This document shows positions 3,952 through 61,015 of a stretch of 64,000 nt of DNA, piece by piece; position 1 is the first letter of the stretch; each line of letters begins with the position of its first letter. The stretch is taken from positions 97,538-161,537 of the forward strand of contig CAYGJY010000002.1 of NCBI GenBank assembly GCA_964350645.1. Direction: 5' to 3'. Below the pieces are notes generated by a model. That model saw only the letters and a list, made by a program, of their open reading frames with translations, did no database searches and was not told the origin of the DNA. This stretch comes from an uncultured Candidatus Saccharibacteria bacterium. GTDB taxonomy: Bacteria; Patescibacteriota; Minisyncoccia; Phycocordibacterales; UBA918. The translations under genes were made by a program, and so were the position numbers.

Positions 3952-4491
3952 ATGTCTGGACATAATAAATGGAGTAAAATTAAGCACAAAAAGGCGGCCA
4001 CTGACGCGCAGAAGAGTAAGATTTTCAGCAAGCACGCCTCACTGATCGCCATGGAATCCCGCAAGGCCAACGGGGATGTGAACTCTCCCGGGCTAGCGGC
4101 GGCGATTGATCGGGCGAAGAAAGACTCGATGCCAAAAGATAATATTGATCGGGCGGTGACGAAAGGGAGCGGCGCCTCCGGCGCCGCTCTCGAAGAAGTT
4201 ATGTACGAAGGCTATGGTCCTGGTGGCGTGGCGATGTTGATCGAAGCAGTGACCGATAACAACAACCGCACAGCTCCAGAAATCCGCCACATCTTTACTA
4301 AAGCCGGCCTGGAGCTGGGTACGCCCGGCTCTGCTGCGTGGGCCTTTTCTAAAACTGCCGATGGCTACGTCCCACAAAATCCAATGGAACTTGATGACGC
4401 CACGGGTGAGAAACTGGCTGACTTGATTGAAAAACTTGAAGAAAGTGAGGACGTGACCAACGTCTACACCGCCGCTGACACTCCTGAGTAA
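3952..4491 (+). CDS. yebC: YebC/PmpR-family transcriptional regulator (short form, 179 aa)
   Basis: N-terminus MSGHNKWSKIKHKKAATDAQKSKIFSK and ...YEGYGPGGVAMLIEAVTDNNNRTAPEIRHIFTKAGLELGTPGS match YebC, but the protein is about 60-70 aa shorter than canonical YebC (middle domain missing). Confidence 0.75.
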   Translation: MSGHNKWSKIKHKKAATDAQKSKIFSKHASLIAMESRKANGDVNSPGLAAAIDRAKKDSMPKDNIDRAVTKGSGASGAALEEVMYEGYGPGGVAMLIEAVTDNNNRTAPEIRHIFTKAGLELGTPGSAAWAFSKTADGYVPQNPMELDDATGEKLADLIEKLEESEDVTNVYTAADTPE

Positions 4492-9323: not shown

Positions 9324-10418
9324 TTATTTATTCATTGGCATCACAAGATAGCGAAGTGTATGGTCATCAACCCCTTCCATCACCATCGGTTTACCAATAC
9401 CTGCAAAGTGTAAAACTAGACTATCACTAGCGATATGTGGCAATGCCTCAGCGACATATCGTTGATTAAAATTAAGTGTTAAATCATCACCCTCAGTTGT
9501 AGCAGTAATGGAGTTGGTAGTAGTTCCAACTTCCCCACTTGTAGCATTAATAGTGACTGATTTTTCTGTCACGTGCATTCCAACTTGGAAAAACTTATTT
9601 AAAAAGATATTAGTTTTTTTCAACGCGTGTACTAAATCGTTTTTAACTAACGTCGAATGTGTAACATATTCCTTAGGAATTATTTGTACATAATCAGGAA
9701 ACGAGCCGGTTGTAAGTCGTGAAGTAACATAGACCCCATCATCAAATTCTAATGAAAATTGATTTTCATTTACTCTCATTACTGGATCAGTATTTTTTAA
9801 ATCACAAATTCGTGATAACTCAATAGCGTTCTTTTGAGGAATTAAAATTGATTCATCAAAGGTAAGGTTTTTTTGAGGGACAGTTTTTTCCATTAAACGA
9901 AATGAGTCTGTTGCCACAAAAGTAAGAGAATGTTCTTTTTTTTGAAAAATATATACACTCCCTAATTCTGGTTTAATCGATGATTGAGAAGCAGCAAATG
10001 CTGCAGTTTTAATTCCTAAAGAAAAAAGTGAATTTGAAACAGTTTGACCAGTCCCAGTTATTTTTGGAATGGTTGGAAACTCATCATGAGGAATACTTTT
10101 TATTTGTGTCTCAGAACCATCAACCTCAACAATCAATGACCCTTCCTCAGCCCGGAGAGTAATAGTTTGTTGTTTAATTAAATTAATTGTCTGTGACAAT
10201 GTTTGGACTGGTACCGCAATCACTCCTTCTTCTTCAATTGTTGCCGTGAGTGCAACTTCAATCCCAAGTTCTAAATTAGTTGCTTTTAATAAAACCTTAC
10301 CCTGTTCAACCACTAATACACCACATTGTAAAACTGGTAGTGTCACATGTTTAGTGCTAATTCTAGAAATTAATTCTAGTTTTGTTTGTAACTCAGTTGT
10401 TTCTAAAGTGATGTGCAT
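9324..10418 (-). CDS. dnaN: DNA polymerase III beta sliding clamp
   Basis: 364 aa, three-domain clamp, located immediately downstream of dnaA. Confidence 0.9.
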   Translation of the reverse strand: MHITLETTELQTKLELISRISTKHVTLPVLQCGVLVVEQGKVLLKATNLELGIEVALTATIEEEGVIAVPVQTLSQTINLIKQQTITLRAEEGSLIVEVDGSETQIKSIPHDEFPTIPKITGTGQTVSNSLFSLGIKTAAFAASQSSIKPELGSVYIFQKKEHSLTFVATDSFRLMEKTVPQKNLTFDESILIPQKNAIELSRICDLKNTDPVMRVNENQFSLEFDDGVYVTSRLTTGSFPDYVQIIPKEYVTHSTLVKNDLVHALKKTNIFLNKFFQVGMHVTEKSVTINATSGEVGTTTNSITATTEGDDLTLNFNQRYVAEALPHIASDSLVLHFAGIGKPMVMEGVDDHTLRYLVMPMNK

Positions 10419-10419
10419 A

Positions 10420-10760
10420 AGTCAGTAGTTCTTTTTTATATTTTAATTATAGCTCTTCTTATTAGCTCTGTGGAACTGTGTAAATCTTAAATCCATGGCT
10501 TAGTACGGGATCTTTTTCGACCTAAAAAATTTAATAACCCGGGGATAGTACAATTTTTATCAGTAATAACGTGGGTACAACTATAACAAATTACTTAAAC
10601 AGTTGATAACTCAAGTATTTGTATGATCTTTTCCACAGACTTTGTATAAAAAATAGCTTTTTATACACAAATAATTCTCACTCATACACTTGTAATTAGT
10701 GCTTTTCCCCAACAAAATAAGTACAAAAAAAATCTAGCATCGCTAGATTTTTTTTGTACT
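10420..10760. promoter_or_regulatory. Candidate oriC segment (dnaA-dnaN intergenic): AT-rich unwinding region plus DnaA-box-like 9-mers
   Basis: AT-rich run 10425..10460. ttttccaca (10629..10637) matches TTATCCACA at 8/9. A weaker tgtggaact is at 10469..10477. The perfect 18 bp inverted repeat gtacaaaaaaaatctagc/gctagattttttttgtac sits at the dnaA 3' end. Confidence 0.35.
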
Positions 10761-12157
10761 TATTTCAAGAGCATTCGTACTTGTGTTACTTCTTCTTCTA
10801 GTTCTGGACTACTCTTAAGTTCATTTTTAATTTTTTCACAAGAGTGGATGACGGTTGTGTGGTCTCGCCCCCCTAGTTTTTGACCAATTGCAGGGTATGA
10901 AACTTGGAAATCCTCTCGCAAGATATACATGATGAGTTGCCGGGGTTTCACGACTTCTTTACGGCGGGTTTTCTCATAAATTGATGATGGGTCTATATCA
11001 AAGTAGCGGGCTACTTTATCTACCACATCTGAAACAGCAAGAGTTTTGCGTGGTCGCGTGCTGTTTTTAATAATTAATTTTACTTCTTCAATTGACAGCG
11101 TGCGTCCTAATAGTTGGGACTGACACATAATGGTATTTAACGCTCCTTCAAGTTCACGTATGTTACCTTCAATCGTATTAGCTAGATGGTCGATGACATC
11201 TTCAGTTAAGGTGATGCTATTTTGAGCGGCTTTAGCACGTAAGATAGCGGCTCGTGATTCCATATCTGGCGCTGGGATATCAACGATCATACCTTGAGCA
11301 AAACGTGATTGGAGTCGTTCCTCGAGACCGGCCAACAGTGCCGGGTGCACGTCACTTGAAAATACAATTTGTTTGTTGTTGTCGTGTAAGGCATTGAACA
11401 GATGAAATAGCTCCTCCTGAGTCTTTTCTTTCTTGGCTAAGAATTGTACATCGTCCATGATAAGAACATCATATTGACGGTATTTGTCTTTAAAATTATT
11501 AGCGGTACCGTTTTGAAGCGAATTAAAATAATCTACCGTGAAGCGCTCACTAGTCACATAGAATACTTTTTTCCCAGTTCGTTTTAACTGATTGCCGACA
11601 GCTTGGATTAAGTGGGTTTTACCATGTCCAGTCTTTCCGTAAATAAATAATGGGTTATACGAGATACCTGGTTTTTCACTCACAGTCTTTGAAGCAGCGT
11701 GAGCTAAGGCATTGAATGGTCCGATCACAAAGTTTTCAAAGGTATATTTTGGATTGAGGTTGTCACTTTTATTAATATAGTACTCCTCAAGTGGTAAAGC
11801 AGCGTTGACAGTTTGTGGTCGGGTATCTTGACGTTTGTCGTTTCGTTGGACTACAGCATATTCGATACTTCGCACGTGGGGTGTGAGGTCGCGGAGTACT
11901 TTTAAGATCATTGATTGGAATTTATCGTTTAACCAATCGCGCACAAAAACACTTGGTACACCAAGAGTAATAGTGCCATCCTCTAGAGATGCAATATGGG
12001 TGTCTTTGAACCAGGTTTTGAAATTGGCAGGAGTAATTGACAGTTCGATGGTAACCAAGGCGTCATCCCATAACTTTTTCACATCGACATGTTCTGTCTG
12101 AACGATGCTGTTTGTGGTAAGAGATGTTTGTGACAATGGATTCATAGAAGTAATCAA
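10760..12157 (-). CDS. dnaA: Chromosomal replication initiator DnaA
   Basis: 465 aa; AAA+ Walker A GKTGHGKTHL, C-terminal DnaA-box-binding domain. Confidence 0.95.
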   Translation of the reverse strand: MITSMNPLSQTSLTTNSIVQTEHVDVKKLWDDALVTIELSITPANFKTWFKDTHIASLEDGTITLGVPSVFVRDWLNDKFQSMILKVLRDLTPHVRSIEYAVVQRNDKRQDTRPQTVNAALPLEEYYINKSDNLNPKYTFENFVIGPFNALAHAASKTVSEKPGISYNPLFIYGKTGHGKTHLIQAVGNQLKRTGKKVFYVTSERFTVDYFNSLQNGTANNFKDKYRQYDVLIMDDVQFLAKKEKTQEELFHLFNALHDNNKQIVFSSDVHPALLAGLEERLQSRFAQGMIVDIPAPDMESRAAILRAKAAQNSITLTEDVIDHLANTIEGNIRELEGALNTIMCQSQLLGRTLSIEEVKLIIKNSTRPRKTLAVSDVVDKVARYFDIDPSSIYEKTRRKEVVKPRQLIMYILREDFQVSYPAIGQKLGGRDHTTVIHSCEKIKNELKSSPELEEEVTQVRMLLK

Positions 12158-53041: not shown

Positions 53042-53704
53042 ATGGTTCGAGATGAAGAAAAGTACCAGTTAGCAACGTATTATCGCAAACGCGGTTTTAC
53101 CTATGCTGAGATAGCTAAAATATGTAACGTATCTAAAGGAACCGTGAGTACCTGGTTGGCTAAAAAAGCTTTTTCTAAGAAAGTAAAAAAAGATAATCTT
53201 GTTCGTGCGGGTAAAGATAATGCTAAGCGGGTTAGCCTTCTCAATAAAGCACGCCAAACCGAACGCGCTGCCCGCTATAAAGAAGCAGAGCGATCAGCAG
53301 TGACAGAATACCGACACTATAAGAGTGACCCCTTTTTCATGGCGGCCTTGATGATTTACGACTTGTCAGGCGATACAAGAGATCTCTCGCGGATTCGTCT
53401 GACTTGTAAATCAATGTCAGCTCATCGCATTTTTATAAAGTTTCTACACCAATATCTTGGGGTAGAAAAAAATTTGGTTACGTGCTGGTTGATCATTCCG
53501 GCTAATGTGTCAGAGAAAACTGCATTATTTGCTTGGCAGAAGGTTACTAAGTTACCAGCCAGTCAGTTTGGTAAAACACAAATTTTGAAACAGACTGCCA
53601 ATACGTTGCACAATGGCACGGGAAATACTATAATCGGCAACACTGTTTTGAAGCGCAAGCTAGTAACATGGCTTGAATTAGCGACAAAAGAGCTCAGTAA
53701 ATAA
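53042..53704 (+). CDS. HTH-domain DNA-binding protein (hypothetical)
   Basis: 220 aa; N-terminal HTH YYRKRGFTYAEIAKICNVSKGTVSTWL; ends 2 bp before tRNA-Gly. Confidence 0.45.
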   Translation: MVRDEEKYQLATYYRKRGFTYAEIAKICNVSKGTVSTWLAKKAFSKKVKKDNLVRAGKDNAKRVSLLNKARQTERAARYKEAERSAVTEYRHYKSDPFFMAALMIYDLSGDTRDLSRIRLTCKSMSAHRIFIKFLHQYLGVEKNLVTCWLIIPANVSEKTALFAWQKVTKLPASQFGKTQILKQTANTLHNGTGNTIIGNTVLKRKLVTWLELATKELSK

Positions 53705-53887: not shown

Positions 53888-55039
53888 ATGGCTCGAGTTG
53901 CAATTACGGAGTATGCCGCCAAAAAATTGATATTTGGTGATGATTATCACGGGCTGACAGTTACCCCGAACACCGCTGATGATCTTAAGGTACCAACCGG
54001 AAAATACATTGTAAAAATCGATGTTGGGATCAAAAAACGCGGAAAACAAGGCTTAGTTCGACTTAACGTAGCTGCAGAAGATGTGCCTTCAGCAGCTAAT
54101 GAGCTTTTTGCGCTTGGCTACGATCGTTGTGTCGTGGAGGTGATGGTGCCACATGAAACAGATGAGGAGCGATATCTTTCGCTTGATGTGCACCGGACTG
54201 GCTTGCAGTTGATCCACTCTGAAAAAGGCGGGGTTGAGATTGAGGCGGCGGCTGAAGCTGATATCAAGCGGACGCTCGTGGCTTTGCAGGAATTTTTGAG
54301 CGGCACACCGTCGATCTCGATCGACGGTGTGCCGCTCCCCTACTTACTCGAAAAAATGGCAGAGCATCATTTTTCTTTTTTAGAGATAAATCCCTACCTG
54401 GTTGTAGAAGACAAGCTGGTAGCGCTTGATATGGCGGTTGAGATTGATTCAACTAAAGAAAACAAGCTGCCAGCGTGGGTGCATGAACATATTTTGCATA
54501 AAAAAGCGGCGAGTGAACAAGAAGCGCGCGTACTCGAACAAGATGCGCGCACCCAAGCCGCCCTTAATTTACATACCCTTAATCCAAATGGTTCGATTTT
54601 AACGTTACTCTCTGGCGGTGGCGCGAGCTTAGTTGGGCTCGATTCTCTCGTCACTGCTGGTCTGCAAGATCAGGTGATCAATTACAGTGAGTATAGTGGC
54701 GCTCCAACCCGGGATGAAACCGCTGTATACGTTGCTACGTTACTTGAAGTACTTTTCAATTCTACCTCTAAAAATAAGGTTATTTTGGTCGCCGGCGGGG
54801 TCGCAAACTTTACCGATGTACTTGCGACCTTCCAGGGAATTGTCGATGCGTTTACTGACAATCTTGAACAATTACAGGCGCAAAACGTGTACGTCTGTGT
54901 CCGACGTGGTGGTCCAAATCAAGAGAATGGCCTGGCTCATCTACGCGACTGGCTTGATCAGCATGATATTCCTAATGATGTCCACGACCCTTCCCTCTCG
55001 CTCGGTGAAGTCGGTAATTTAGTAACAAAACATCTATGA
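53888..55039 (+). CDS. aclB: ATP-citrate lyase beta (small, ATP-grasp) subunit
   Basis: 383 aa; matches ACL/SucC-like N-terminal half of ACLY: YLEINPYLVV, LLSGGGASLV, NYSEYSGAP, VAGGVANFTDVLATFQGI, VRRGGPNQENGL. Confidence 0.8.
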   Translation: MARVAITEYAAKKLIFGDDYHGLTVTPNTADDLKVPTGKYIVKIDVGIKKRGKQGLVRLNVAAEDVPSAANELFALGYDRCVVEVMVPHETDEERYLSLDVHRTGLQLIHSEKGGVEIEAAAEADIKRTLVALQEFLSGTPSISIDGVPLPYLLEKMAEHHFSFLEINPYLVVEDKLVALDMAVEIDSTKENKLPAWVHEHILHKKAASEQEARVLEQDARTQAALNLHTLNPNGSILTLLSGGGASLVGLDSLVTAGLQDQVINYSEYSGAPTRDETAVYVATLLEVLFNSTSKNKVILVAGGVANFTDVLATFQGIVDAFTDNLEQLQAQNVYVCVRRGGPNQENGLAHLRDWLDQHDIPNDVHDPSLSLGEVGNLVTKHL

Positions 55040-56760
55040 TCAACGACATTCGCACTAGTGAGCCGAAGATTTTAGTAGCCGGTAATCACGTCAAGATCAT
55101 TCAATCGATGCTGGATTTTGACTACGCTGCAGGGAAAGAATCACCGAGTGTGGTGGGGATTATTTCGGCCGGCCGTAAAACTCAAAAGTTTTTCTGGGGC
55201 GATGGTGAGATCTTGGTGCCGGTAGTGCCCGACGTTGAGGCAGCAAAAAAGGCTTCATTTGAGCCAGATTTCCTGCTTTGTATCACTTCGGCTTCGAGTA
55301 CACCACGGATGGTCGAGGCATTTTTTGCTGCGTTCCCAGCAGCTGTCGGCGCCCATCTCTTCGCTGAAGGGGTGGCCGAGCGCGATGCGCTTCAGTTGAT
55401 CGAAGCGTATGGCGAAGAGAAGCTTATTCTCGGTGCTTCGGGGGTTGGTCTTTGTGTACCAGGCAGCCTTAAACTAGGCGCTATTGGCGGTATTCTGGGT
55501 CCACGACTGGCTGAACTAGGTCGAACTCGTGGTCACACGGCGGTGATTTGCAGTTCTGGTGGTATGGTCAACGAACTTATGTACCAGGTCGTTGCTGCCG
55601 GCAGTGGGATTAGTTTTGCGGCTTGTTACGGAGGCGACCGTTTCCCTGTCACTTCCCCGCTACAGTGGCTTACACAAGCTCAAAACGACCCGGAGACCAA
55701 AGATATTGTCTACTTTGGGGAATTGGGTGGTGACGATGAGTATACGCTTCGAGACGCCATTAAGGCTGGCAATATCACTAAGCCAGTCTATGCCTATATT
55801 GCTGGCCGCTACGAAAGTCAGGATGAAACAATCCAGTTTGGCCATGCTAAAGCCCTCGCTAAAGCAGAATCAGAGACAGCGGCGGCTAAAATGGCTGCTT
55901 TGGCTGCTGTCGGAGTGAACGTCAGCGATACATTTAATGATTTTATGGCTACGTTCGCCTCGCTTTCACGTGAAACTAGCGTTGGCGAGTCAGTTCGGGA
56001 CTGGAATGAACGCCCGGCTCATCTACAGCCGACTGTCTATTCTGCCCCGGCGTATACTGGCGCCCATGCGGCCAGCTTTACCGAAGGTATTTTGGCTCGC
56101 ATTCTCGGTCGCAGCAGTGTTTCACGGGAAACCGCTGACTTTGCTGACTTGATCTTTGCGCAGTTGATCGACCATGGACCACATGTGTCTGGAGCGGTAA
56201 ATACTATGATTACTACTCGAGCTGGCCGTGACCTAAGCTCGGCCCTGGCTACGGGTGTCCTGACAGTTGGTGATCGCTTTGGTGGCGCTATCAATGGTGC
56301 CGCTCAGATTTGGCACGATGCTGTTTCACGTGGCATCACTGCCGATGAGCTGGTGGCAGACTACAGCCAGCAGCGCCAGTATATTTTAGGCATTGGACAC
56401 CGAAAATACTCAGTGTATAAGCCAGATCCGCGCGTACAAGCCTTGATTGAGCATGGTAAAAATGTTCTACGTGAAACACCTCACCTTGATTTTGCCCTGT
56501 CAGTGGAGACAATCACCGCTAAAAAGCGCGCTAACCTGATTTTAAATGTAGATGGTGTTATTTCAGCTCTATTTACGGACTATTTGATTGCCAAAGAAGA
56601 CTTTACTGCTGAAGACATTGCTGAACTTATCGATATTGAGTTTTATAATGCTCTGTTCCTCATTCCTCGTTCGGTGGGGTTTGTCGGAAATTATCTCGAT
56701 CAAAAACGCATTGACGAAGGATTGTTTCGTTTGGGCGACAAAGATAGCTATAATTTTTAG
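55036..56760 (+). CDS. aclA: ATP-citrate lyase alpha (large) subunit: CoA-binding/phospho-His domain plus citrate-synthase-like domain
   Basis: 574 aa; catalytic-His loop ETIQFGHAKALAKAESETAAAKMAAL (cf. ACLY [25 protein letters not shown]); C-terminal LGIGHRKYSVYKPDPRVQAL (cf. GFGHRVKSINNPDMRVQIL). ATGA overlap with aclB. Confidence 0.8.
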   Translation: MINDIRTSEPKILVAGNHVKIIQSMLDFDYAAGKESPSVVGIISAGRKTQKFFWGDGEILVPVVPDVEAAKKASFEPDFLLCITSASSTPRMVEAFFAAFPAAVGAHLFAEGVAERDALQLIEAYGEEKLILGASGVGLCVPGSLKLGAIGGILGPRLAELGRTRGHTAVICSSGGMVNELMYQVVAAGSGISFAACYGGDRFPVTSPLQWLTQAQNDPETKDIVYFGELGGDDEYTLRDAIKAGNITKPVYAYIAGRYESQDETIQFGHAKALAKAESETAAAKMAALAAVGVNVSDTFNDFMATFASLSRETSVGESVRDWNERPAHLQPTVYSAPAYTGAHAASFTEGILARILGRSSVSRETADFADLIFAQLIDHGPHVSGAVNTMITTRAGRDLSSALATGVLTVGDRFGGAINGAAQIWHDAVSRGITADELVADYSQQRQYILGIGHRKYSVYKPDPRVQALIEHGKNVLRETPHLDFALSVETITAKKRANLILNVDGVISALFTDYLIAKEDFTAEDIAELIDIEFYNALFLIPRSVGFVGNYLDQKRIDEGLFRLGDKDSYNF

Positions 56761-56779
56761 TTCGGTACTAGCAATACTG

Positions 56780-56823
56780 CCACGTGAAATGGCCGGAAGC
56801 TTTGCTTCCGGCCATTTCACGTG
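56780..56823. terminator. Long perfect hairpin between convergent aclA and def. Its arms are parS half-site-like (CACGTGAAAT/ATTTCACGTG).
   Basis: ccacgtgaaatggccggaagc-ttt-gcttccggccatttcacgtgg. Confidence 0.6.
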
Positions 56824-56831
56824 TAACTCCC

Positions 56832-57353
56832 CTATTTCCCCCGCACGTGCTTAAGGTAGTATTCACGACTTACTAAACTCTGTGGATCAGCTAAGTCAGT
56901 AAAAAGAATTCCATTGAGGTGATTAACTTCATGTTGGATTACTCGAGCGAGCAAACCAGTAGCAGACATTTCACGTGAAACGCCTTTTTGGTCTAAATAT
57001 TTCAAAGTAATAGCAATGGATCGCTCAACTTTTCCAAATAAGCCAGGAATTGAGCCACATCCTTCCCAGTCAAGCGTTGTTTCACGTGAAAAGTCGGTAA
57101 TTTCTGGATTTATATACACCCGAAGTTCGTCAGTTATTCCCTTGCGAAACTTAGTTTCACGAATTTCTGTGACAATAATCTGCTTCGATACATTAAGCTG
57201 GGGCGCAGACAGTCCGATCAACTCTTCTCCTCGCATCGTATCAACAAGATCAGTAATGTAAGACTGAATTTTATCGGAATCTTGATTTGAAACTTCCTTA
57301 GCTGTTTCACGTAGAACCGCTTCACCAATTAGAACGCTAGGTTTAATAGACAT
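56832..57353 (-). CDS. def: Peptide deformylase
   Basis: 173 aa; GLSAPQ, EGCGSIPG, QHEVNHLNG (HExxH). Confidence 0.85.
   Translation of the reverse strand: MSIKPSVLIGEAVLRETAKEVSNQDSDKIQSYITDLVDTMRGEELIGLSAPQLNVSKQIIVTEIRETKFRKGITDELRVYINPEITDFSRETTLDWEGCGSIPGLFGKVERSIAITLKYLDQKGVSREMSATGLLARVIQHEVNHLNGILFTDLADPQSLVSREYYLKHVRGK
56967..56982. promoter_or_regulatory. parS-like site (13/16 to TGTTTCACGTGAAACA), inside def
   Basis: cattTCACGTGAAACg. Confidence 0.6.
57078..57093. promoter_or_regulatory. parS-like site (14/16), inside def
   Basis: TGTTTCACGTGAAAag. Confidence 0.65.
57303..57318. promoter_or_regulatory. parS-like site (13/16), inside the def 5' region
   Basis: TGTTTCACGTagAACc. 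Confidence 0.55.
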
Positions 57354-57406
57354 ATTCGGAGTATAACAAACTTTCTATCTTGATGTTTCCCGTGTAACAT
57401 AAGGAT

Positions 57407-58081
57407 ATGCTGAGCTTGTTAGCGGTAGTAATCATATATACGTTTGTCTTTGGTGTTGATTATTTGCGCTACCGGTCCAACCCGCTGACCTACCAGTATG
57501 TTTCACGTAGAACATACCTACTGTTTTTAGTCGGTATTCTCCCGATCATATACCTATTTTATACTGATTTTGAATCTTTTTTTGAGCATATTTATACTGA
57601 AATAGCCTTAATATCGCTATTACTAGCAATGATGTTGTTATTTAGCTATCTACTCAGCCGTGAGAGACTGCTTGTGTGTCATACATCGTCACGTACAGAA
57701 CGATGCTTAACGGCAGGTTATGTCCTTACTAAAGGTAAAGAGATTATGTTTCAACAGTTTTGTTACGCTGGGGTAGCCTTTTCTTTGGTTACTCTACTCG
57801 GGAGTGGTTTTTGGACCTACGTAGGCTATATAGTAATACTACTTATCATGCACACTCCTGTTATTTTGAGCATGAATGTTTCGGCAGCTAGTCGCCTAAC
57901 ATTAGGGATTCTAGTAATGGCCGCCCCACTTTTCTATATATTTATAGAGGTCCAACACTTTTGGCCCTCTATGTATTTACACGCATTGCTGTACGTATTT
58001 CTGTGGTTAACCTTTGCCGACTGGGAAGGAAAAATCATTCATGTTTCACATGAAACTAATAAAGTGGATAAGTGGGGATAA
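57407..58081 (+). CDS. Polytopic membrane protein (hypothetical)
   Basis: 224 aa, about 6 TM helices; contains two parS-like sites in its coding sequence. Confidence 0.5.
   Translation: MLSLLAVVIIYTFVFGVDYLRYRSNPLTYQYVSRRTYLLFLVGILPIIYLFYTDFESFFEHIYTEIALISLLLAMMLLFSYLLSRERLLVCHTSSRTERCLTAGYVLTKGKEIMFQQFCYAGVAFSLVTLLGSGFWTYVGYIVILLIMHTPVILSMNVSAASRLTLGILVMAAPLFYIFIEVQHFWPSMYLHALLYVFLWLTFADWEGKIIHVSHETNKVDKWG
57499..57514. promoter_or_regulatory. parS-like site (14/16)
   Basis: TGTTTCACGTagAACA. Confidence 0.6.
58043..58058. promoter_or_regulatory. parS-like site (14/16)
   Basis: TGTTTCACaTGAAACt. Confidence 0.6.
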
Positions 58082-58191
58082 CTGCGGGGATAGGTGGATA
58101 AAGGACAGTACTTAACAATACGAGTATTATACAAATACGCTTTAAAATATAGGTTTTAGTTATTTAATTCAGTCTTTTTAACAAAAACATA

Positions 58192-58207
58192 CGTTTCACG
58201 TGAAACA
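58192..58207. promoter_or_regulatory. parS site (15/16), intergenic upstream of yraN
   Basis: cGTTTCACGTGAAACA. Confidence 0.7.
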
Positions 58208-58254
58208 TCTATAATCAAGCCAGAGTTGATAAAATATGGCTAATAATATAGCTT

Positions 58255-58659
58255 ATGAGTAAAAAAGAACAAAATAAACAGATTGGGGATTATGGTGAGA
58301 AAATTACCCAAAACTACCTTAAAAGGCAAGGTTTTCAGATATTAGACACAAACTATCTTAAAAAGTGGGGAGAACTCGATATTGTGGCTAAAAATAAGGG
58401 TATTATACACTTTATTGAGGTTAAAACCTTAGCATATGATACAAAACTGGCTCTTGATAGGGCAGTAGGCACTGATTCTTGGCGTCCAGAAGAACAGGTG
58501 CATCAGTTTAAACTTAAACAGATATATAAAGCATTGGAATCGTGGTTGTTGGAGCATCACTATGAAGGAGAGTGGCAGATTGATGTGGCAGCTGTACGCT
58601 TAGTGGTGAGTGAAAAGTACGCTACTGTAAAACTTATCCAAAATGTCATCGAGGGCTAG
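58255..58659 (+). CDS. yraN: YraN-family (UPF0102) endonuclease-like protein
   Basis: 134 aa; GEKITQNYLKRQGFQIL...WGELDIVAKNKGIIHFIEVKT. Confidence 0.7.
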   Translation: MSKKEQNKQIGDYGEKITQNYLKRQGFQILDTNYLKKWGELDIVAKNKGIIHFIEVKTLAYDTKLALDRAVGTDSWRPEEQVHQFKLKQIYKALESWLLEHHYEGEWQIDVAAVRLVVSEKYATVKLIQNVIEG

Positions 58660-58670
58660 AAATATAGATA

Positions 58671-58707
58671 TGTCCTTTATAAAGGACTCTGTCTTTTATA
58701 TGAGACA
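58671..58707. repeat. Copy 3 of the TGTCCTTTATAAAGGAC palindrome plus an adjacent half-copy (tgtcttttata...gagacag)
   Basis: tgtcctttataaaggact ctgtcttttatatgagacag, directly after the yraN stop. Confidence 0.5.
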
Positions 58708-58828
58708 GGGTTGAGATTAGTTTTAGTAGTTATCGGCACAGTACAGTTTATTTGTTAGTTTGCCAGGTACAGTGTGAACAAAAGATGACGCCAACCTTAG
58801 AAGGTTGGCGTCATCTTTTGTATGAATG

Positions 58829-58899
58829 TCGGGGAGCCGGGAATCGAACCCGGACCACACGGTCCCAAACCGCGTACACTACCACTATGCTACACCCCG
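58829..58899 (-). tRNA. tRNA-Pro (anticodon TGG)
   Basis: Manual fold on the minus strand: acceptor CGGGGTG/CTCCCCG (one T-T mismatch), D-arm GCAT/GTGT (two G-U), anticodon stem CGCGG/CCGTG with loop TTTGGGA, T-arm CCGGG-TTCGATT-CCCGG. Confidence 0.6.
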
Positions 58900-58928
58900 A
58901 GGCAGTGAGGGTCGTGGTGTGCTAGGCC

Positions 58929-58986
58929 AACAAAATAATGAGCAGAAAATCAAAGATTTCTTTTATTTTCTGCTCATTGTTTTGTT
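58929..58986. other. 22 bp-stem hairpin between tRNA-Pro and the GC-rich island
   Basis: aacaaaataatgagcagaaaat-caaagatttctttt-attttctgctcattgttttgtt (1 mismatch). Confidence 0.5.
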
Positions 58987-59217
58987 GGTGCAAGTGAAGC
59001 TTGCGGCAGACCGTGACCGAACAACGAGAGGGTGCAAGCTTCGCTTACAGCCGTCAACCTAACTTAATTAGGTAATTGAATGTGAATCCAATTTCGCGTG
59101 CCAAATAATACCATAGCAGTATAAAATTGCGAGTCTATCTATTGTGTTATGTAAAAGTAATGGTATTGTTCGTTCGACGCTCAGAGTGGGCGTTGAACAA
59201 CGATTAGGAGACTAACT

Positions 59218-59637
59218 ATGAATTACCGAGGTTTTAACTTCACCACCGACGGCGAGAATCCGGCGGTGGTCCCCAACAGCGAGGCGGCCGCCTCGCAGTT
59301 GGGCTACAGCGGTGTAGAGGAGGTCTGCATCGCGGGTATCACCATCACCGTCGGAGACGGTGAATCGACCTGGTTCGAGAAAGTCGGGGATGGCAAGTAT
59401 CGCTCTGCAGTCTTCGTCGAGGCAATGCTAGCCTACCGCGGACATTCGCGTGGGTTAATGTCCAAGATCGTCGTCGACGAAGTCTTCATGTTGGCCCTTC
59501 GGGGCTACATGGGCGAACGAGTCTGGGCAGAAGCCACGGACTCGAATGGCGAAAAGCACGGCTTTATCCGCGCGCTTCTGCGCGGGCAGGGTAAGGACGT
59601 CACCATCGACGTTACTTGGAAGAAACCGGCCGCGTAG
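59218..59637 (+). CDS. Hypothetical protein (139 aa) in the GC-rich (about 60%) island
   Basis: Strong RBS tAGGAGactaact-ATG. GC3-rich codon usage unlike the surrounding genes. No recognisable motif. Confidence 0.5.
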   Translation: MNYRGFNFTTDGENPAVVPNSEAAASQLGYSGVEEVCIAGITITVGDGESTWFEKVGDGKYRSAVFVEAMLAYRGHSRGLMSKIVVDEVFMLALRGYMGERVWAEATDSNGEKHGFIRALLRGQGKDVTIDVTWKKPAA

Positions 59638-59679: not shown

Positions 59680-60516
59680 ATGGCCGATAAACAACGTGCG
59701 GCTCTGGAAGCCGCCATCGAAGCTGCATGGGAAGCCCGCGATACGATCACCCCCGCCACAAGGGGCGATCAGCGCGACGCCATCGAGGCAACGCTGGAGG
59801 CGCTGGACAAGGGCGCGCTGCGTGTCGCGGAACGTCAGGCGGACGGCACATGGCATGTGAACCAGTGGGCCAAGAAGGCCGTTCTGCTGGGGTTCCGGAT
59901 CAAGGACATGGAAATGCAGTCCGGCGGCCCGCAGGGCGGCGGCTGGTGGGACAAGGTCGACAGCAAGTTTGCCGGATGGGGCGATGCGCAGTGGAAATCC
60001 GCCGGGTTCCGTGCCGTTCCCAACTGCATCGTGCGCAAGTCCGCCTATATCGCCAAGGGCGTGGTTCTGATGCCGTCTTTCGTCAATCTCGGCGCCCATG
60101 TCGGCGAGGGGACGATGGTCGACACCTGGGCCACGGTCGGGTCTTGCGCGCAGATCGGCAAGAATGTGCATCTGTCCGGCGGTGTCGGCATCGGCGGGGT
60201 GCTGGAGCCGATGCAGGCCGGGCCGACGATCATCGAGGACAACTGTTTCATCGGTGCGCGGTCCGAGGTTGTCGAAGGCTGCATCGTGCGCGAGGGATCG
60301 GTGCTCGGCATGGGCGTCTATATCGGCCAGTCCACCAAGATCGTTGACCGGGAAACCGGCAAATTCACTTATGGCGAGGTGCCCGCCGGGTCTGTCGTCG
60401 TGTCCGGCTCACTGCCGTCCAAGAACGGTGTGAACCTTTATTGCGCGGTGATCGTGAAGCGGGTGGATGCGCAGACCCGGTCGAAAACTTCGATCAACGA
60501 GCTACTGCGCGACTGA
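59680..60516 (+). CDS. dapD: 2,3,4,5-tetrahydropyridine-2,6-dicarboxylate N-succinyltransferase, alphaproteobacterial type
   Basis: 278 aa; about 65% GC. N-terminus [21 protein letters not shown]...[23 protein letters not shown]... and hexapeptide-repeat left-handed beta-helix region. Strongly resembles Rhodobacterales-type DapD. Confidence 0.8.
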
Positions 60517-60574
60517 GCGCAGGAGCGGTGGCCGAGCGATAGCGAGGCCACCCATGTTCTTCCGTTCTTTGGAG

Positions 60575-60612
60575 GATCCTTCCGCCCGCCCTTGCGATAG
60601 CTTGGGCGGGCG
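60575..60612 (+). terminator. GC-rich terminator at the 3' boundary of the GC-rich island
   Basis: ccgcccgccc-ttgcgatagctt-gggcgggcgg followed by cttctattttt. Confidence 0.6.
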
Positions 60613-60616
60613 GCTT

Positions 60617-61015
60617 CTATTTTTCTAAACTATCTAAAATCTCTTCAATAGAATCAACCCAGATAGCTGCTGGGTGGTAGTTGAACATAGCACAATCTTT
60701 TTGGTCGCCGAGGATAAAGATTTTCGGACTGCCGGTTTTGAGGTAGGTAGCGACTGCTGCGCCATACTCGACATACATGCCAGTACCCTCAGGGTGGGGC
60801 AGGAGGACAAAGAAATCGGCTTCAATAGCACCGTTGAAGGCACGTTCGGCGGTGTGAGCCGTCTTGGTTGGATCTGCATCGTAGGGCTTTACGTCTTCAC
60901 CATTCATCCAGTCAAAGGTCATGGTGTGACCAGCAGCTTCGAATTCAGCTTTTAAGGCTAAGGCTTTTTGGCGCAAGGGTTCGTCACTAAAACGAGTAGC
61001 CAGGTAGAATTTCAT
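60617..61015 (-). CDS. Nucleoside 2-deoxyribosyltransferase-like protein
   Basis: 132 aa; YLATRFSDE...FDW...ADFFVLLPHPEGTGMYVEYGAAVA... typical of the NDT family. Confidence 0.5.
   Translation of the reverse strand: MKFYLATRFSDEPLRQKALALKAEFEAAGHTMTFDWMNGEDVKPYDADPTKTAHTAERAFNGAIEADFFVLLPHPEGTGMYVEYGAAVATYLKTGSPKIFILGDQKDCAMFNYHPAAIWVDSIEEILDSLEK

Follow-up and report, generated by a model that had tools for sequence, protein, structure and literature searches.

Dense clusters of parS, the chromosomal site bound by ParB, have a well-described example in Myxococcus xanthus, where 22-24 parS sites lie within ~3 kb, 4 kb upstream of parA and ~35 kb from oriC (Iniesta 2014, PMC3899335). ParB of M. 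xanthus binds a fragment of this cluster (PMC3899335). The locus described here, at positions 55962-58207 of a 64-kb stretch (64,000 nucleotides, hereafter the window) from an uncultured Candidatus Saccharibacteria bacterium, is very probably a functional ParB-binding chromosomal centromere, or parS array, of this lineage. It resembles the M. xanthus cluster in that many degenerate 16-bp palindromes are irregularly spaced in 2-3 kb, tens of kilobases from oriC. It differs in having about half as many sites, in lying apart from parAB (absent from at least the adjoining 10 kb and from the window as a whole), in being situated largely inside unrelated coding sequences and in surrounding a triplet of DnaA boxes; moreover, ParB binding, observed in M. 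xanthus, is here predicted from the sites.

With the parS sites of Bacillus subtilis and Caulobacter crescentus the array shares the consensus, the variable positions, an origin-proximal location and a frequent placement within genes (Livny 2007; Kawalek 2020, PMC7022226). Most species, however, carry one to four canonical sites, or up to ten scattered over tens to hundreds of kilobases, whereas at least ten occur here in 2.25 kb. Noc-binding sites (NBS, ATTTCCCGGGAAAT), which are bound by a ParB paralogue, are a related palindrome, but they are dispersed and carry A and C at the two bases where ~95% of the half-sites of this cluster carry G and A. Plasmid arrays such as sopC of F, parS of P1 and parC of R1 likewise contain many binding sites in a short stretch and nucleate a partition complex. 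They consist of regular tandem iterons beside parAB, whereas only a 16-mer unit of the chromosomal parS type recurs here, irregularly and with no adjacent par genes. Clusters of DnaA boxes outside oriC are known in B. subtilis (the DnaA-box clusters, or DBCs) and in E. coli (datA and DARS), and DnaA reportedly binds at the Caulobacter centromere (Mera, Kalogeraki and Shapiro 2014). As is said of the latter, consensus DnaA boxes lie here away from oriC and inside the parS region; unlike all of these elements, they form, as read from the sequence, three to four tandem copies in the same orientation by a promoter-like block upstream of yraN.

The array is most likely a further case of the dense chromosomal parS clusters already known, found here in a lineage of the candidate phyla radiation and unusually compact. 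Its distinguishing traits are its separation from parAB, its mostly coding location in interchangeable host genes, its graded number of sites and the embedded DnaA-box triplet.

Sites of the array

The window was scanned for the 16-mer TGTTTCACGTGAAACA with up to three mismatches, and dinucleotide-preserving shuffles (n = 100) served as the control. Ten parS-like sites were found, all within the 2.25 kb of 55962-58207. The shuffles gave a mean of 0.39 sites per 64 kb and a maximum of two, so that none of the 100 reached ten, and the local enrichment in the array is ~700-fold. The rest of the window (~62 kb) has no site at this threshold, and the sequence covered amounts to ~7% of a genome of ~1 Mb. 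Sites follow one another at distances of 76 to 543 bp without any periodicity, and neither helical phasing nor regular spacing was seen. A repeat search of the array returned families 14-23 nt long and no repeat unit longer than ~19 nt, and the array is therefore not a mobile repeat or element.

The upstream part of the array is contained in the gene for subunit B of an ATP-citrate-lyase-like (ACL-like) enzyme (55036..56760, plus strand; hereafter ACL-B), which carries three to four sites in its 3′-terminal 800 bp. These are GCTTTCACGTGAAACT at 55962..55977 (three mismatches, encoding L-S-R-E-T; kept in the related locus L017 and lost in L018), TGTTTCACGGGAAACC at 56118..56133 (two mismatches, V-S-R-E-T) and TGTTCTACGTGAAACA at 56463..56478 (two mismatches, V-L-R-E-T; kept in both L017 and L018). 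A weak fourth site, TGTTTCACGTGGCATC at 56322..56337, has four mismatches and a perfect left half; its counterpart in L017 and L018 is a better site, GGTTTCACGTGAAATG. The adjoining gene on the minus strand, def (peptide deformylase, 56832..57353), is not found in most related loci and holds three full sites and two half-sites. The full sites are CATTTCACGTGAAACG at 56967..56982 (three mismatches, V-S-R-E-M), TGTTTCACGTGAAAAG at 57078..57093 (two mismatches, F-S-R-E-T) and TGTTTCACGTAGAACC at 57303..57318 (three mismatches, V-L-R-E-T). The half-site GTTTCACG at 57154..57161, encoding E-I-R-E-T, is among the weaker additions to the array, together with the sites at 56322 and 56813, which have four mismatches each.

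The next gene, which encodes a 224-aa polytopic membrane protein (57407..58081, plus strand), has its 5′ end at the centre of the array. The site TGTTTCCCGTGTAACA at 57384..57399 (two mismatches) lies 7 nt 5′ of the ATG of this gene, TGTTTCACGTAGAACA at 57499..57514 (two mismatches) occupies the codons Y-V-S-R-R-T, and TGTTTCACATGAAACT at 58042..58057 (two mismatches, V-S-H-E-T) falls in the poorly conserved C-terminal tail. The best site of all, CGTTTCACGTGAAACA at 58192..58207, has one mismatch and is intergenic, 48 nt upstream of yraN (UPF0102; 58255..58659, plus strand). The yraN gene has two to three further sites in other lineages and none in the window.

Between the convergent ACL-B and def genes lies a perfect hairpin with a 20-bp stem (56781..56823; dG -39.9 kcal/mol, z = -10.7), each arm of which holds one parS half (CACGTGAAAT / ATTTCACGTG). 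At the same spot L017 has two full parS-like sites, TGTTCCATGTGAAACG and CGTTTCACATGGAACT, which make up an outer stem; inside it lies a GC-rich, terminator-like hairpin. The hairpin of the window can thus be traced to such an arrangement, of which it keeps half of each site.

The original prediction for this DNA had described a cluster of six parS-like 16-mers at 56780-58207, four of them coding, and the hairpin. All six exist, with 13/16, 14/16, 13/16, 14/16, 14/16 and 15/16 matching positions, the one placed at 58043 lying at 58042. The cluster is real as well; it comprises at least ten sites and starts ~0.8 kb further upstream, the earlier count having missed 57384 inside its range and 55962, 56118 and 56463 upstream of it. 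Five of the six are coding, where the earlier count gave four: def holds three of them and the membrane gene two, and 58192 is intergenic. The statements that the coding sites are accommodated as V-S-R-E/T codons, which holds in the same frame throughout, and that the 20-bp stem has arms resembling parS halves were borne out.

Identity of the motif

A logo of 64 sites from six lineages, the window included, reads nGTT[T/c/a]CA[C/t][G/a]TG[A/t/g]AAC[A], and the positions that vary are 1, 5, 8/9, 12 and 16. The chromosomal parS consensus is TGTTNCACGTGAAACA, with positions 1, 5, 16 and the central CG known to vary (Table 1, PMC7022226). A parS half-site is told from a Noc-binding half-site by G at position 2 and A at position 7 (PMC7383237). 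Among the 128 half-sites of the logo the parS-specific G is present in 121 and the A in 122, and the bases typical of NBS are rare, with 3 of the 128 having A at position 2 and 5 having C at position 7. These bases, together with the clustered layout, rule out Noc-binding sites as the identity of the motif. A plasmid-type iteron centromere is ruled out by the irregular spacing, the shortness of the repeat families (only 14-23 nt) and the lack of par genes within reach.

Conservation and apparent growth of the array

Related loci were collected as family neighbourhoods from a 96.5%-identical strain (L005-L007), from two closer relatives (L017 and L018) and from five distant lineages (L012, L013, L014, which is the same as L008, L015, and L016, which is the same as L009) whose membrane protein identity is 43-50%. 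One scan of genome contigs yielded five loci, and the related contigs are annotated as Candidatus Saccharibacteria or Patescibacteria. The array is present in the same place in 8/8 lineages that have the membrane gene, with 8-12 sites in ~1.5-2.4 kb. In each distant lineage 9-12 sites, again with up to three mismatches, cluster within 1.75-2.4 kb about yraN and the start of the membrane gene, and the loci of 8-20 kb (~130 kb of flanks) contain no site outside the arrays. The window and the distant lineages together contain 64 sites in 143.5 kb, 64/64 of which are inside the arrays. The closer relatives have 11 sites (L017) and 8 sites (L018), with turnover.

Orthologous sites occur at positions -23, +58, +92 and about +775 relative to the start of the membrane gene. 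The -23 site, which is 57384 in the window, has the same position in all six aligned lineages and in L017 and L018. The +58 site is read as TTG TTC TAC GTG AAA CA (L-F-Y-V-K-Q), in the second stop-free frame, and the +92 site (57499 in the window) as TAT GTT TCA CGT AGA AC (Y-V-S-R-R-T). The site at about +775 is intergenic, before yraN. Other individual sites are gained and lost, even between the 96.5%-identical strains, while the arrays persist; what is maintained is the array and not each single site. The genes upstream of the array also vary. ACL-B, with or without def, occupies this place in the window, L017 and L018, and a phosphate acetyltransferase-family (PTA_PTB) gene occupies it where annotated in L008 and L009/L010, with a DCC1-like gene also in L008. 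The swapped, unrelated genes still carry parS-like sites.

A metagenome scan with GTGGATAAAGGACAGT produced ten further relatives among the 120 loci listed, ~110 of which are chance matches. In the distant L023 and L037, whose yraN products are 35-40% identical, the DnaA-box triplet is accompanied by only 1-2 parS sites just upstream of or inside yraN. Two loci without the membrane gene, L081 and L119, have 4-6 sites. A graded series is thus formed, from 1-2 sites (L023, L037) through 4-6 (L081, L119) to 8-12 in the clade of the window. Since the distant relatives have only one or two parS at yraN, the array seems to derive, by expansion, from an ancestral parS located 5′ of this gene. It appears to have grown from a single ancestral site between the DnaA-box triplet with its promoter region and yraN, and the best site at 58192, which even the distant relatives with 1-2 sites possess, would be this ancestral site.

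Selection on the DNA of the host genes

Within the window all coding sites are read in the GTT TCA CGT GAA ACA frame, as V-S-R-E-T or a near variant, whichever strand codes; of the other two frames through a parS site, one holds a stop codon. In a codon alignment of the membrane gene from six lineages, Leu, Val, Thr and Pro residues that never vary are encoded by 3-4 different codons, which means that synonymous positions are saturated. The codons in the two N-terminal sites (GTT TCA CGT AGA AC and TTG TTC TAC GTG AAA CA) are identical wherever the site is present. Those of the +92 site are identical in four lineages despite the 43-50% identity of the protein.

Synonymous resampling, in which codons were redrawn from the codon usage of the window itself, gave far fewer sites than are present. 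Three sites are observed in ACL-B against 0.45 expected (P = 0.0025), three in def against 0.32 (P = 0.0005) and two in the membrane gene against 0.16 (P = 0.002). The host proteins show the same tendency at the level of peptides. The pattern [VLIF][SL][RH][ER] occurs 10 times in the 974 residues of the three array genes versus 3 times in the 11,762 residues of 25 other window proteins, so that V-S-R-E-like peptides are ~40-fold enriched in the array host proteins. Judged from these sequences, the host proteins are bent towards V-S-R-E-T or F-Y-V-K peptides and the array is held by selection at the DNA level.

The origin and the DnaA-box element

The plus-strand G+C skew at third codon positions (GC3 skew) is negative for most genes, and for all longer ones, up to dnaN (9324-10418, minus strand). 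From dnaA (10760-12157, minus strand) to ~52 kb it is positive for nearly all genes, whichever strand codes. It weakens to near zero at 52-58 kb, across the array genes, without reversing. The flip between dnaN and dnaA, whose intergenic region is 71% A+T, places oriC at ~10.5 kb and the array 45-48 kb to its right, a few percent of the ~1-Mb genome away. An oriC at 58 kb was considered and rejected because the skew switches at ~10.5 kb and not at the array.

Inside the array, at 58060..58109 on the plus strand, three to four DnaA-box-like repeats stand in tandem (GTGGATAA GTGGGGATAA .. GGGGATAG GTGGATAA) and are followed by AGGACAGT. The original prediction had not mentioned this conserved element. 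The boxes at 58060-58101 share one orientation and span the 3′ end of the membrane open reading frame (ORF) and the spacer before yraN. Exact GTGGATAA 8-mers occur only twice in the window, at 58064 and 58094, and the DnaA boxes near dnaA are all imperfect. The spacer that follows (~58106/58110..58191) is 78% A+T and contains a conserved TAcAAT..GGCT..TAAATA block; the conserved block in 58110-58191 is probably the promoter region of yraN. Two to four tandem boxes, AGGACAGT and the AT-rich spacer are kept in every lineage examined, distant ones included (L012-L016, L017, L018, L023, L037, L073, L081, L096, L115, L119, L128 and L134). The boxes at 58060-58101 would presumably be bound by DnaA. 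They could be a DnaA-dependent promoter element, or a DnaA site of the datA/DARS type or of the Caulobacter type at a centromere.

A more ambitious proposal, doubtful as it stands, is that the array and the triplet are one composite cis-element in which DnaA binds inside the centromere and couples initiation or DnaA activity to ParB-parS segregation in these epibionts with reduced genomes, under selection strong enough to recode the neighbouring genes. In its extreme version the firing origin would be here and not at dnaA-dnaN.

The locus might also serve mainly in replication control, as a second or true origin or as a site of DnaA titration or reactivation like datA, DARS or the B. subtilis clusters, with parS as an accessory. 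The boxes and the 78% A+T spacer would then recruit DnaA, and parS would couple the locus to ParA/ParB, an arrangement compatible with a centromere. The restriction of exact boxes to this site, the imperfection of those near dnaA and the retention of the boxes, AGGACAGT and the spacer in every lineage speak for such a role. The 58-kb locus indeed has the DnaA-box cluster and the AT-rich region of an oriC, but it lacks the skew switch: the GC3 skew flips sharply at dnaN/dnaA, and in the relatives L005, L013, L014 and L016 its values to the left and right of the array are positive or close to zero. In addition, ordinary DnaA-dependent transcription control suffices to account for the triplet, as it abuts the promoter-like block upstream of yraN. 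Replication control as the main function is thus unlikely.

ParA, ParB and other candidate binding proteins

No ParA or ParB domain was detected with Pfam in the 50 window ORFs of at least 120 aa, and tblastn searches of the window and all related loci with B. subtilis Spo0J and Soj sequences returned nothing meaningful. In Southlakia epibionticum, transposon sequencing scored as essential both a ParA-type ATPase, SEML1_0183 (K03496), and a ParB/RepB/Spo0J protein, SEML1_0184 (PF02195 and PF17762), encoded at 180 kb in the genome and hence not near the start of its record (PMC10633639 supplement). ParAB therefore exist in Saccharibacteria and need not adjoin dnaA or parS. The presence of ParB in the lineage of the window is likely by analogy with this phylum-level record.

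A different candidate is offered by a gene at 53042-53704 for a 220-aa protein with an N-terminal helix-turn-helix (HTH) domain of the HTH_23 family. The protein family is large (>313 clusters at 50-70% identity), and the confident structural model (predicted local distance difference test, pLDDT, 92.7) shows a 50-residue helix and an alpha/beta domain besides the N-terminal HTH, which has three helices. The model matched neither a ParB-like structure nor, at a significant level, any other PDB entry, and the protein is accordingly without support as a ParB-like binder and without a tie to segregation. The sites could still be operators of a lineage-specific non-ParB protein, such as this HTH protein encoded 2-5 kb upstream, that regulates or structures the locus. 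In every locus whose upstream sequence is long enough, the HTH gene shows synteny with the array or the yraN-parS core, and no ParB gene was found in reach. However, the sites fit the pan-bacterial parS consensus including its specificity bases, the HTH protein lacks the structural matches just mentioned and belongs to a large, highly conserved family, and ParAB are known in the phylum. Operators of this kind are highly unlikely.

Chance, codon bias, a recurring protein motif or a dispersed repeat (a DNA-uptake sequence, for example, or a miniature inverted-repeat transposable element) is a scarcely credible source of the cluster. Several sites do encode similar peptides, and uptake sequences are conceivable in the naturally competent Saccharibacteria (PMC10633639). 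However, 0/100 shuffles approach the site count, synonymous resampling destroys the sites, and they lie in unrelated proteins, both stop-free frames and intergenic DNA. Outside the arrays, neither the window (~62 kb) nor the relatives' flanks (~130 kb) contain any, and no repeat unit extends past the 16-19 nt core.

The array as a probable centromere

The centromere thus remains the preferred explanation for 55962-58207. According to established ParABS biology, ParB dimers would bind the array sites, close into CTP-bound clamps and slide outwards. The sliding ParB would build a partition complex near the origin, which ParA would move and which could load SMC. The protein that binds the sites would presumably be the canonical ParB of this organism, and the array may be the only or main parS locus of the genome.

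Several observations weigh against this interpretation. Most array sites carry two to three mismatches, and some may bind weakly or as half-sites; the same applies to the recurrent variant TGTTTCACGTAGAACA, in which the right half is disrupted. The view of the array as the only or main parS locus is drawn from ~7% of the ~1-Mb genome. No parA or parB was found in the window, in ~10 kb beyond its right end (from L005) or in any related locus. Finally, the conserved DnaA boxes and the promoter-like block indicate that the locus has other cis functions too.

The original prediction had also regarded the cluster as a centromere-like ParB loading centre, and the conserved array, the changing host genes and the parS-specific bases of the logo all agree with that view. 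Its estimate of a distance of about 45 kb from dnaA was accurate (the array is 44-46 kb away), as was its description of the locus as origin-proximal, the skew-defined origin lying ~45 kb from the array. Its statement that parA and parB are missing from the window was confirmed both by Pfam (ORFs of at least 120 aa) and by tblastn in any frame. Its argument that the embedded sites imply DNA-level selection is strengthened by the frozen synonymous positions inside them. It had further suggested that conservation of the sites be checked in relatives, and the array is kept in all relatives examined.

Host genes and surroundings of the array

The membrane protein at the centre of the array belongs to a small family (21 clusters) with the invariant residues C91, R96, R99, C100, H149 and H192. 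Its AlphaFold 2 model is confident (pLDDT 84.7) and has about 7 helices. It has no Pfam match and no significant fold match in the PDB, and these searches gave no tie to segregation. The disordered C-terminal tail appears to be an incidental read-through into the DnaA-box element.

The ATP-citrate-lyase-like pair at 53888-56760, with an ATP-grasp/citrate-binding and a CoA-ligase/citrate-synthase subunit, is found only in the sub-clade of the window. In L017 (347-3689) a GNAT acetyltransferase gene lies between the two ACL-like subunit genes.

The window is a segment of a low-GC (about 45%) bacterial chromosome. Its left part contains, in order, ruvB, ruvC, tyrS, a class A penicillin-binding protein gene, dnaN, dnaA, rpmH, rnpA and yidC. 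The right part continues with a type IV secretion-like cluster, carAB, tRNA-Arg and tRNA-Gly, the HTH gene and the ACL-like pair, and the array region then leads through def, the membrane gene and yraN to tRNA-Pro (58828-58899) and corA. An Rfam scan of 55800-59200 found no RNA family except this tRNA-Pro.

Almost all genes in the ~38 kb at 13685-52128 (the type IV secretion-like cluster, uvrD, pnp, carAB and others) are on the minus strand. As their GC3 skew puts them to the right of the origin, these genes would be transcribed head-on to replication, which is unusual for a long stretch beside an origin. Near the left end, the YebC/TACO1-family ORF at 3952-4491 is only 179 aa long, with a partial Pfam match to the second and third domains; a truncation or a frameshift may account for this.

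To the right of the array, near tRNA-Pro, an insertion of 958 bp (59681-60638; 64% G+C) contains a single proteobacteria-like dapD (tetrahydrodipicolinate N-succinyltransferase). The 96.5%-identical strain L005 has 59 bp in its place, and the segment was either gained recently by horizontal transfer or is a chimera of the assembly. The 139-aa ORF preceding it (59218-59637, 59% GC) is GC-rich too but common to L005. At the left edge of the GC-rich segment, beside tRNA-Pro, a long hairpin or inverted repeat (58909-59013) matched only sub-threshold Rfam models resembling microRNA precursors and could be an integration scar.

Implications

The locus provides a likely centromere for an uncultured member of the Saccharibacteria, a candidate phyla radiation group in which the biology of the chromosome has hardly been studied. 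The locus is a clean natural example of selection on DNA overriding the protein, as the unrelated genes def, the ACL-like subunit, the membrane protein gene, yraN and the PTA_PTB-family gene have each been recoded to contain parS where the array covers them. With relatives that range from one ancestral site to twelve, the way in which site number evolves becomes accessible to study, and the DnaA-box triplet in the array is a concrete candidate for connecting the initiator protein with the centromere. Genetically tractable Saccharibacteria such as Southlakia and TM7x would allow mutation of the corresponding locus.

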